From Escherichia coli (lineage in GTDB: Bacteria; Pseudomonadota; Gammaproteobacteria; Enterobacterales; Enterobacteriaceae), in assembly GCF_003334315.1 (NCBI RefSeq), contig NZ_QOWR01000136.1: a stretch of 344 nt of DNA. One strand, given 5' to 3'. The stretch's first letter is position 1; each line of letters starts with the position of its first letter. Positions 1 through 344 of this stretch are shown here, one piece after another. The notes under the pieces were generated by a model. It was not told the origin of the DNA. It saw only the letters and a program-made list of their open reading frames with translations, and made no database searches. Both the position numbers and the translations under genes were made by a program.

Positions 1-344
1 CCGATGACTTTGTCATGCAGCTCCACCGATTTTGAGAACGACAGCGACTTCCGTCCCAGCCGTGCCAGGTGCTGCCTCAGATTCAGGTTATGCCGCTCAA
101 TTCGCTGCGTATATCGCTTGCTGATTACGTGCAGCTTTCCCTTCAGGCGGGATTCATACAGCGGCCAGCCATCCGTCATCCATACCACGACCTCAAAGGC
201 CGACAGCAGGCTCAGAAGACGCTCCAGTGTGGCCAGAGTGCGTTCACCGAAGACGTGCGCCACAACCGTCCTCCGTATCCTGTCATACGCGTAAAACAGC
301 CAGCGCTGACGTGATTTAGCACCGACGTAGCCCCACTGTTCGTC
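1..344 (-). mobile_element. Internal fragment of an IS1-family insertion sequence (divergent or mosaic isoform); both element ends lie outside the window
   Basis: The reverse complement of the window matches, along its whole length, the insB portion of IS1 as I recall it (e.g. ...GATGACGGATGGCTGGCCGCTGTATGAATCCCGCCTGAAGGGAAAGCTGCACGTAATCAGCAAGCGATATACGCAGCGAATTGAGCGGCATAACCTGAATCTGAGGCAGCACCTGGCACGGCTGGGACGGAAGTCGCTGTCGTTCTCAAAATCGGTGGAGCTGCATGACAAAGTCATCGG). No terminal inverted repeat or target-site duplication is visible because the window is internal to the element. Identification is from memory of the IS1 sequence, not a database search. Confidence 0.93.
1..344 (-). CDS. insB: IS1 transposase InsB / InsAB' C-terminal region, partial at both ends (5' part of insB and the stop codon lie outside the window)
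   Basis: The minus-strand frame with codons running from 344 down to 3 is open across the window: 114 sense codons and no stop. It translates to [115 protein letters not shown], which is collinear with IS1 InsB as recalled (...[124 protein letters not shown]). It is missing from the supplied ORF track presumably because it has neither start nor stop codon inside the window. Confidence 0.92.

Follow-up and report, generated by a model that had tools for sequence, protein, structure and literature searches.

The 344-nt stretch of Escherichia coli DNA analyzed here (the window, positions 1 to 344) is very probably part of the insB gene of a mosaic IS1 belonging to what NCBI annotation calls the IS1X2 family, the assignment to IS1X2 resting on the annotation labels of near-identical elements and not on an ISfinder reference. 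Judged by the alleles it carries, the window is a recombinant of two IS1 types, those of IS1A and IS1F, joined in one of the longest tracts of identity between them. This IS1 variant is already known, being established, named and widely disseminated.

Identity of the Window as a Piece of insB

The window aligned, with no gap, to the 768-bp IS1A of E. coli K-12 MG1655 (NC_000913.3 19796-20563) at positions 47-390, these being element positions in the orientation of the window and corresponding to approximately 379-722 in standard IS1 coordinates (Table 1). It was matched in 4965 of 5426 complete E. coli genomes and in thousands of enterobacterial plasmids, with the annotation at the matching E. 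coli and plasmid places always being "IS1 family transposase." The InsAB' protein of L001, a full element with an identical window, scored 247.8 bits against the NCBIfam model NF033558 ("IS1 family transposase"; cut-off 100), and when an isoform-level name was sought in NCBIfam this family model was the sole match. An Rfam search of the window gave no match. A 96-aa open reading frame on the plus strand (window 4-294), antisense to insB, was taken as a mechanical ORF.

Outside the window, the elements L001, L012 and L013 are 768 bp long with ends (GGTAATGACTCCAACTTATTGAT ... ATCAGTAAGTTGGCAGCATCACC) like those of K-12 IS1A, and possess the imperfect terminal inverted repeats of about 23 bp that are found on IS1-type elements of about 768 bp. 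The A6C frameshift motif AAAAAAC, which also lies outside the window, is present at standard position 307 in L001, L011, L012 and L013, in each of which insA and insB' are joined via a -1 frameshift to give a 232-aa InsAB'. A "programmed frameshift" is noted in NCBI annotation.

Table 1. Features of the window and the sites on which they are based
Feature	Position	Strand	Basis
Internal part of insB, InsAB' residues 109-222	1..344	-	Alignment to K-12 IS1A; open minus-strand frame (DEQWGYVG...HDKVI)
IS1A-type tract	1..126		IS1A allele at all sites separating IS1A from IS1F-type elements
IS1A-allele sites in 1-126	9, 45, 62, 69, 72, 75, 93, 102, 108, 111, 114, 126
Further IS1A-allele sites in 1-126, private to K-12 IS1F	20, 46, 87
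Crossover interval, parental types identical or able to be	127..184		Identity tracts against IS1F-type elements
IS1F-type tract	185..344		IS1F allele at all 20 sites (185-327); 328-344 without informative site
The 20 sites differing from IS1A	185, 189, 192, 200, 201, 215, 223, 228, 231, 236, 252, 261, 271, 276, 278, 279, 309, 312, 321, 327
InsAB' changes, IS1A versus window	S130R, L131I, K133R, M145L, G149E, M152L, P157A, D159E, I162V

Two-Block Partition Between IS1A and IS1F

Alignment of the window to K-12 IS1A gave 324 identities over 344 positions, with no differences in 1-184, 20 in 185-327 and none in 328-344. The preliminary description of this DNA had put the counts at zero in 1-184 and about 20 in 185-327, figures that proved exact against the K-12 element. 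The difference between the two parts (0/184 versus 20/160) gave p = 1.1e-7 in a Fisher exact test, and a breakpoint test of the kind that the preliminary description had proposed, a maximum chi-square scan, placed the break at 184 with the observed value being reached in 3 of 5000 site permutations, such that the clustering of the differences is not due to chance. The delimitation of the divergent region as 185-327 was sound as regards its 20 substitutions, while position 327 is merely the last informative site and does not form a second boundary; in full elements with an identical window the divergent block runs on to window-equivalent positions 366-476.

The source of the divergent block became apparent on comparison with the second K-12 type. 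IS1A and IS1F of K-12 differ at 73 of 768 positions, about 9% over the whole element, a number of mismatches that has also been reported elsewhere (PMC12428005). Within the window the two are separated by 37 sites, the first 17 of which (9 to 181) carry the IS1A allele in the window and the last 20 (185 to 327) the IS1F allele, with no private substitution relative to IS1A and IS1F. Such a perfect two-block order of 17 and 20 sites would arise by chance with a probability of about 1.3e-10. The informative sites therefore fall in contiguous blocks, each matching a parent that exists independently. The parents themselves differ at similar rates on each side of the junction (17/184 on the left and 20/160 on the right), so that the identical half is not merely a conserved region, and this divergence on both sides argues that it is the window, rather than either parent, that is the recombinant.

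Window 1-126 had no differences to IS1A and 12-15 to six IS1F-type references, rising to 13-17 differences to IS1F-type elements when 1-184 was considered, while window 185-344 is identical to K-12 IS1F and an IS1F-type element of Klebsiella pneumoniae ATCC 13883 (L039) showed no differences to the window above position 150. An origin of the mosaic through recombination or gene conversion, with a canonical IS1 and a divergent isoform as the partners, is thus borne out as proposed, with all 20 variant bases being IS1F alleles and the left half lacking the 13-17 IS1F-type differences.

Consequences for the Encoded Protein

The 20 differences from IS1A change nine residues, all within InsAB' residues 130-162 (Table 1). 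When the window was compared with the intact IS1F-type element of EDL933, labelled "IS1F family," 14 differences were found, all in 1-184 and all 14 synonymous, this being the one comparison classified by codon, and over its whole length the window encodes the same protein segment as the EDL933 element. In the left half the two types therefore specify one protein sequence, and within the window the crossover is silent in terms of amino acids. In keeping with the earlier argument from synonymous sites, protein constraint cannot explain the identical half, since the IS1F-type differences there are synonymous (14/14, EDL933).

The Crossover Interval

The sharp boundary that had been placed near position 185 reflects a real switch, the break itself being an interval, 127-184 or 151-184, and not the point 185. 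Compared with L041, a common Klebsiella-plasmid IS1F-type element, the interval 127-184 (58 nt) is the longest tract of identity between IS1A and the IS1F type in the whole element. Compared with IS1F-type elements that have T at 150 the interval is 151-184 (34 nt), which is still among the longest tracts. Site 150 varies among IS1F-type elements, with both L041 and the element of E. coli M217 (L042) carrying the "IS1A" base G. Site 181 is C in the window and in all intact IS1F-type elements and T in K-12 IS1F (L005, reverse complement of 3473-4240, element column 227), where the T turns the Trp163 codon into a stop and makes K-12 IS1F a pseudogene. A truncated IS1 copy adjoining hlyE (L002, annotated by NCBI with "internal stop") also has T at 181.

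Site 181 had been considered as the last IS1A marker, which would have confined the break to 182-184, and was rejected in this role because T181, the K-12 IS1F nonsense mutation, occurs in none of the intact IS1F-type elements. With site 150 variable and T181 private to K-12 IS1F, the crossover is therefore placed in 127-184 for some donors and in 151-184 for others. Its location in one of the longest identity tracts between IS1A and IS1F is as expected for a homology-dependent crossover. Neither a Chi site nor a Chi-like site with one mismatch was found in the window.

Occurrence of the Identical Window and the Junction

The exact 344 bases were found in two E. coli chromosomes, in four plasmids from three genera (two of K. 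pneumoniae, pNDM-SAL of Salmonella Senftenberg and pNDM1_EC14653 of Enterobacter cloacae) and in a Yersinia artesiana genome, giving at least seven independent records in five genera (Escherichia, Klebsiella, Salmonella, Enterobacter and Yersinia). A junction probe made up of window 108-205, with IS1A markers in 108-181 and IS1F markers in 185-201, was matched at 99% or above in 307 E. coli and 342 plasmid records, counts to which each record contributes only its best place and in which a few alignments are trimmed at the ends. A 91-nt probe (window 140-230), which had exact matches in 1176 E. coli and 2020 plasmid records, was dropped because L041, with G150 and C181, matches it fully. In phage records the identities to the window were just 93.9-95.6%, with none at the level of 98.8% or above seen for mosaic elements.

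The window-identical element of pNDM1_EC14653 (L013) is a complete 768-bp copy flanked by a 9-bp target-site duplication, TAAATACCG, and the mosaic has therefore transposed as a unit. No target-site duplication was present at L001, L011 or L012, nor at K-12 IS1A. The assembly chimera that the preliminary description had also entertained is not supported, and neither is an event local to the source genome, given the presence of the same 344 bases in independent complete records of five genera and of the junction in hundreds of records. That description had named a uniform match of one known isoform to the window as a refuting finding, and the elements labelled "IS1X2 family" match the window over its whole length; by this measure the recombination event appears to be an old one that is fixed in a named isoform lineage.

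Relationship to IS1X2 and Other Mosaic Elements

Between the window and intact elements labelled "IS1-like element IS1X2 family transposase" the identity is 98.8-99.1%, with E. coli L73 (L045) having 341/344 and pPK5074 (L009) 340/344 identities. The L045 element has the same IS1A-to-IS1F switch as the window, between 181 and 185, and L009 encodes a protein segment identical to that of the window. The exact-window elements L001, L003, L013 and L017 differ from the labelled elements outside the window and are labelled just "IS1 family transposase" by NCBI annotation. IS1X2 has been reported to be active in clinical E. coli, disrupting nfsA/nfsB and causing deletions (PMC10569738). In relation to the canonical IS1 elements of K-12 (IS1A and IS1E), the window is identical in 1-184, and the element has the same length and ends, whereas 185-327 carries 20 substitutions (nine amino-acid changes); unlike K-12 IS1F, the window is free of the stop at Trp163 (site 181).

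Full elements sharing the junction showed diverse patterns elsewhere. The pEC014-2 element (L010, 955-1722) switches once, from IS1A-type before the junction to IS1F-type throughout the remainder, the pattern of a single crossover, while the E. coli L73 element (L045) has an IS1A-IS1F-IS1A pattern and L001, L003, L013 and L017 have extra IS1F-type patches towards the insA end of the element. At about standard position 307 of the pEC014-2 element, a C-to-A change gives AAAAAAAT where the frameshift motif would read AAAAAAC. The left edge of the IS1F-type block lies between 114 and 126 in pPK5074 (labelled IS1X2 family), between 126 and 150 in the truncated copy adjoining hlyE, and between 192 and 200 in pHS30-1 and a contig in a Streptomyces assembly. 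The panel of elements was picked by similarity to the window, so the seeming persistence of the central IS1F-type block across the mosaics is a sampling effect and carries no information on selection for it. The differing mosaic patterns of elements that share the junction argue for repeated recombination, and IS1 in Enterobacterales is, as far as these patterns allow it to be described, a pool of repeatedly recombining segments.

A complete mosaic IS1 with AT-rich flanks occupies 54-821 of the 1001-bp contig NODE_133 of Streptomyces pinistramenti SF28 (L038) and has 33 differences from IS1A and 48 from IS1F. This contig is probably contaminating enterobacterial or plasmid DNA.

Mosaic IS1 elements are not a new observation. 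Lawrence, Ochman and Hartl (Genetics 131:9-20) reportedly found in 1992 that IS1 homologues of diverse enteric taxa are mosaic, pointing to multiple recombination and horizontal transfer; relative to that study the present work names both parental types, the crossover interval and the junction counts in current collections. Experiments in E. coli B have yielded sequenced hybrid IS1 junctions, in amplifications, that arose from crossovers joining two IS1 copies (PMC11253626), and gene conversion between repeats is documented in E. coli K-12 (PMC4444293).

Parental IS1F-Type Elements Outside E. coli K-12

Intact IS1F-type elements were sought by a pattern scan that took one genome per species, which retrieved elements in Siccibacter, Mixta, K. 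pneumoniae ATCC 13883 and Pantoea, all with C at 181. Further intact IS1F-type elements are those of EDL933 and the common Klebsiella-plasmid element (L041). The draft genome of Mixta mediterraneensis Marseille-Q2057 has 19 IS1F-type copies (L018-L036), 16 of them complete and near-identical to each other, with L019 having a 9-bp target duplication, and three cut at element position 303-319 or thereabouts, a pattern suggestive of recent IS1F-type expansion outside Escherichia.

Two of the records call for comment in their own right. On scaffold25.1 of Pantoea piersonii (3715-4463, L040) the IS1F-type IS1 aligns as two overlapping pieces (element 1-649 and 588-686), suggesting that about 60 bp have been duplicated or rearranged internally. 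The 547-bp contig00190 of Archangium violaceum Cb vi76 (L037, 1-547) opens with 149 bases that match perfectly the yjhU-side flank of IS1F in E. coli K-12, continues as IS1F with one difference in 398 bases, nonsense site included, and is E. coli K-12 contamination of the myxobacterial assembly.

Proposed Origin of the Mosaic

The proposed origin builds on the findings that the informative sites fall in two blocks, that both parental types exist separately, that many independent records carry the junction, that reading frames are intact and that one copy has a target-site duplication; a mechanism of homologous recombination within a single cell that held both copies, as well as the timing and direction of the event, is what we infer from them. 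At some past time two copies diverged by about 9% over 768 bp, one of IS1A type and the other of IS1F type, would have recombined, with a crossover or gene-conversion boundary inside the identical stretch of 34-58 bp (window 127-184), giving an insB of which the 3' part (window 1-126/184) is IS1A-type and the central part (window 185 on) is IS1F-type. The recombinant would have retained intact reading frames and ends, spread through Enterobacterales via transposition and conjugative plasmids, and since undergone further recombination with other IS1 copies in other parts of the element.

A mosaic lying wholly inside a multi-copy repeat could in principle be an artefact in which IS1A-like and IS1F-like copies were collapsed and joined in silico at their shared 34-58-bp stretch, particularly as both types coexist in many E. 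coli genomes, the median genome having 10 IS1 places, and the junction sits in just such an identity tract, where an assembler could switch between copies. We regard this as very improbable for the window given its identical counterparts in at least seven independent records of five genera, the junction in hundreds of complete records and a window-identical element that has inserted cleanly at its full 768 bp, flanked by a 9-bp target duplication; a real and common molecule with the sequence of the window exists and an artefact is therefore not needed. Less credible still, to the point of being negligible, is an origin with no recombination at all, in which the right half would have evolved faster, as a mutation hotspot or under relaxed or positive selection, and the left half would have kept the IS1A sequence. 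The alteration of amino acids by 9 of the 20 changes, clustered in residues 130-162, would be in keeping with such an origin, yet every one of the 20 variant bases is an allele of IS1F-type elements that exist independently, which independent mutation would not reproduce, and IS1F-type elements carry 13-17 left-half differences, synonymous where classified, that the window lacks.

The direction of the event could also be reversed, with the mosaic being ancestral and the IS1A type, the IS1F type or both being recombinants with unsampled lineages. Comparisons of three sequences cannot formally root such events and IS1 mosaics are numerous, and this reading is granted slightly more room than an artefact, while still being judged highly unlikely. 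It needs two events and two unsampled donors as against one event between two sampled lineages, the divergence between IS1A and IS1F is fairly uniform along the element, and the IS1F-type elements form homogeneous multi-copy families in several genera. A past recombination between an IS1A-type and an IS1F-type copy is therefore the reading that we retain.

Implications for the IS1 Family

The window represents a genuine and widespread IS1 variant and not an error, which matters little beyond bookkeeping. Agreement with "canonical IS1" along part of its length does not fix the isoform of an element. In IS typing, or the tracking of plasmids by IS1 variants, copies should be treated as mosaics and compared segment by segment, and short-read assemblies cannot assign IS1 halves to copies.

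It is possible, if rather doubtful, that the switch in 127-184 is a recurrent crossover point rather than the trace of one ancestral event. This suggestion comes from the interval being the longest perfect run (58 bp, against the common plasmid-borne IS1F type) and being shared by elements that have very different mosaic patterns elsewhere. Were it recurrent, IS1 "isoforms" such as IS1X2 and IS1X3 would be a network of repeatedly recombining segments and not clades, with the positions of the crossovers set by the minimal length of perfect identity needed for homologous recombination.
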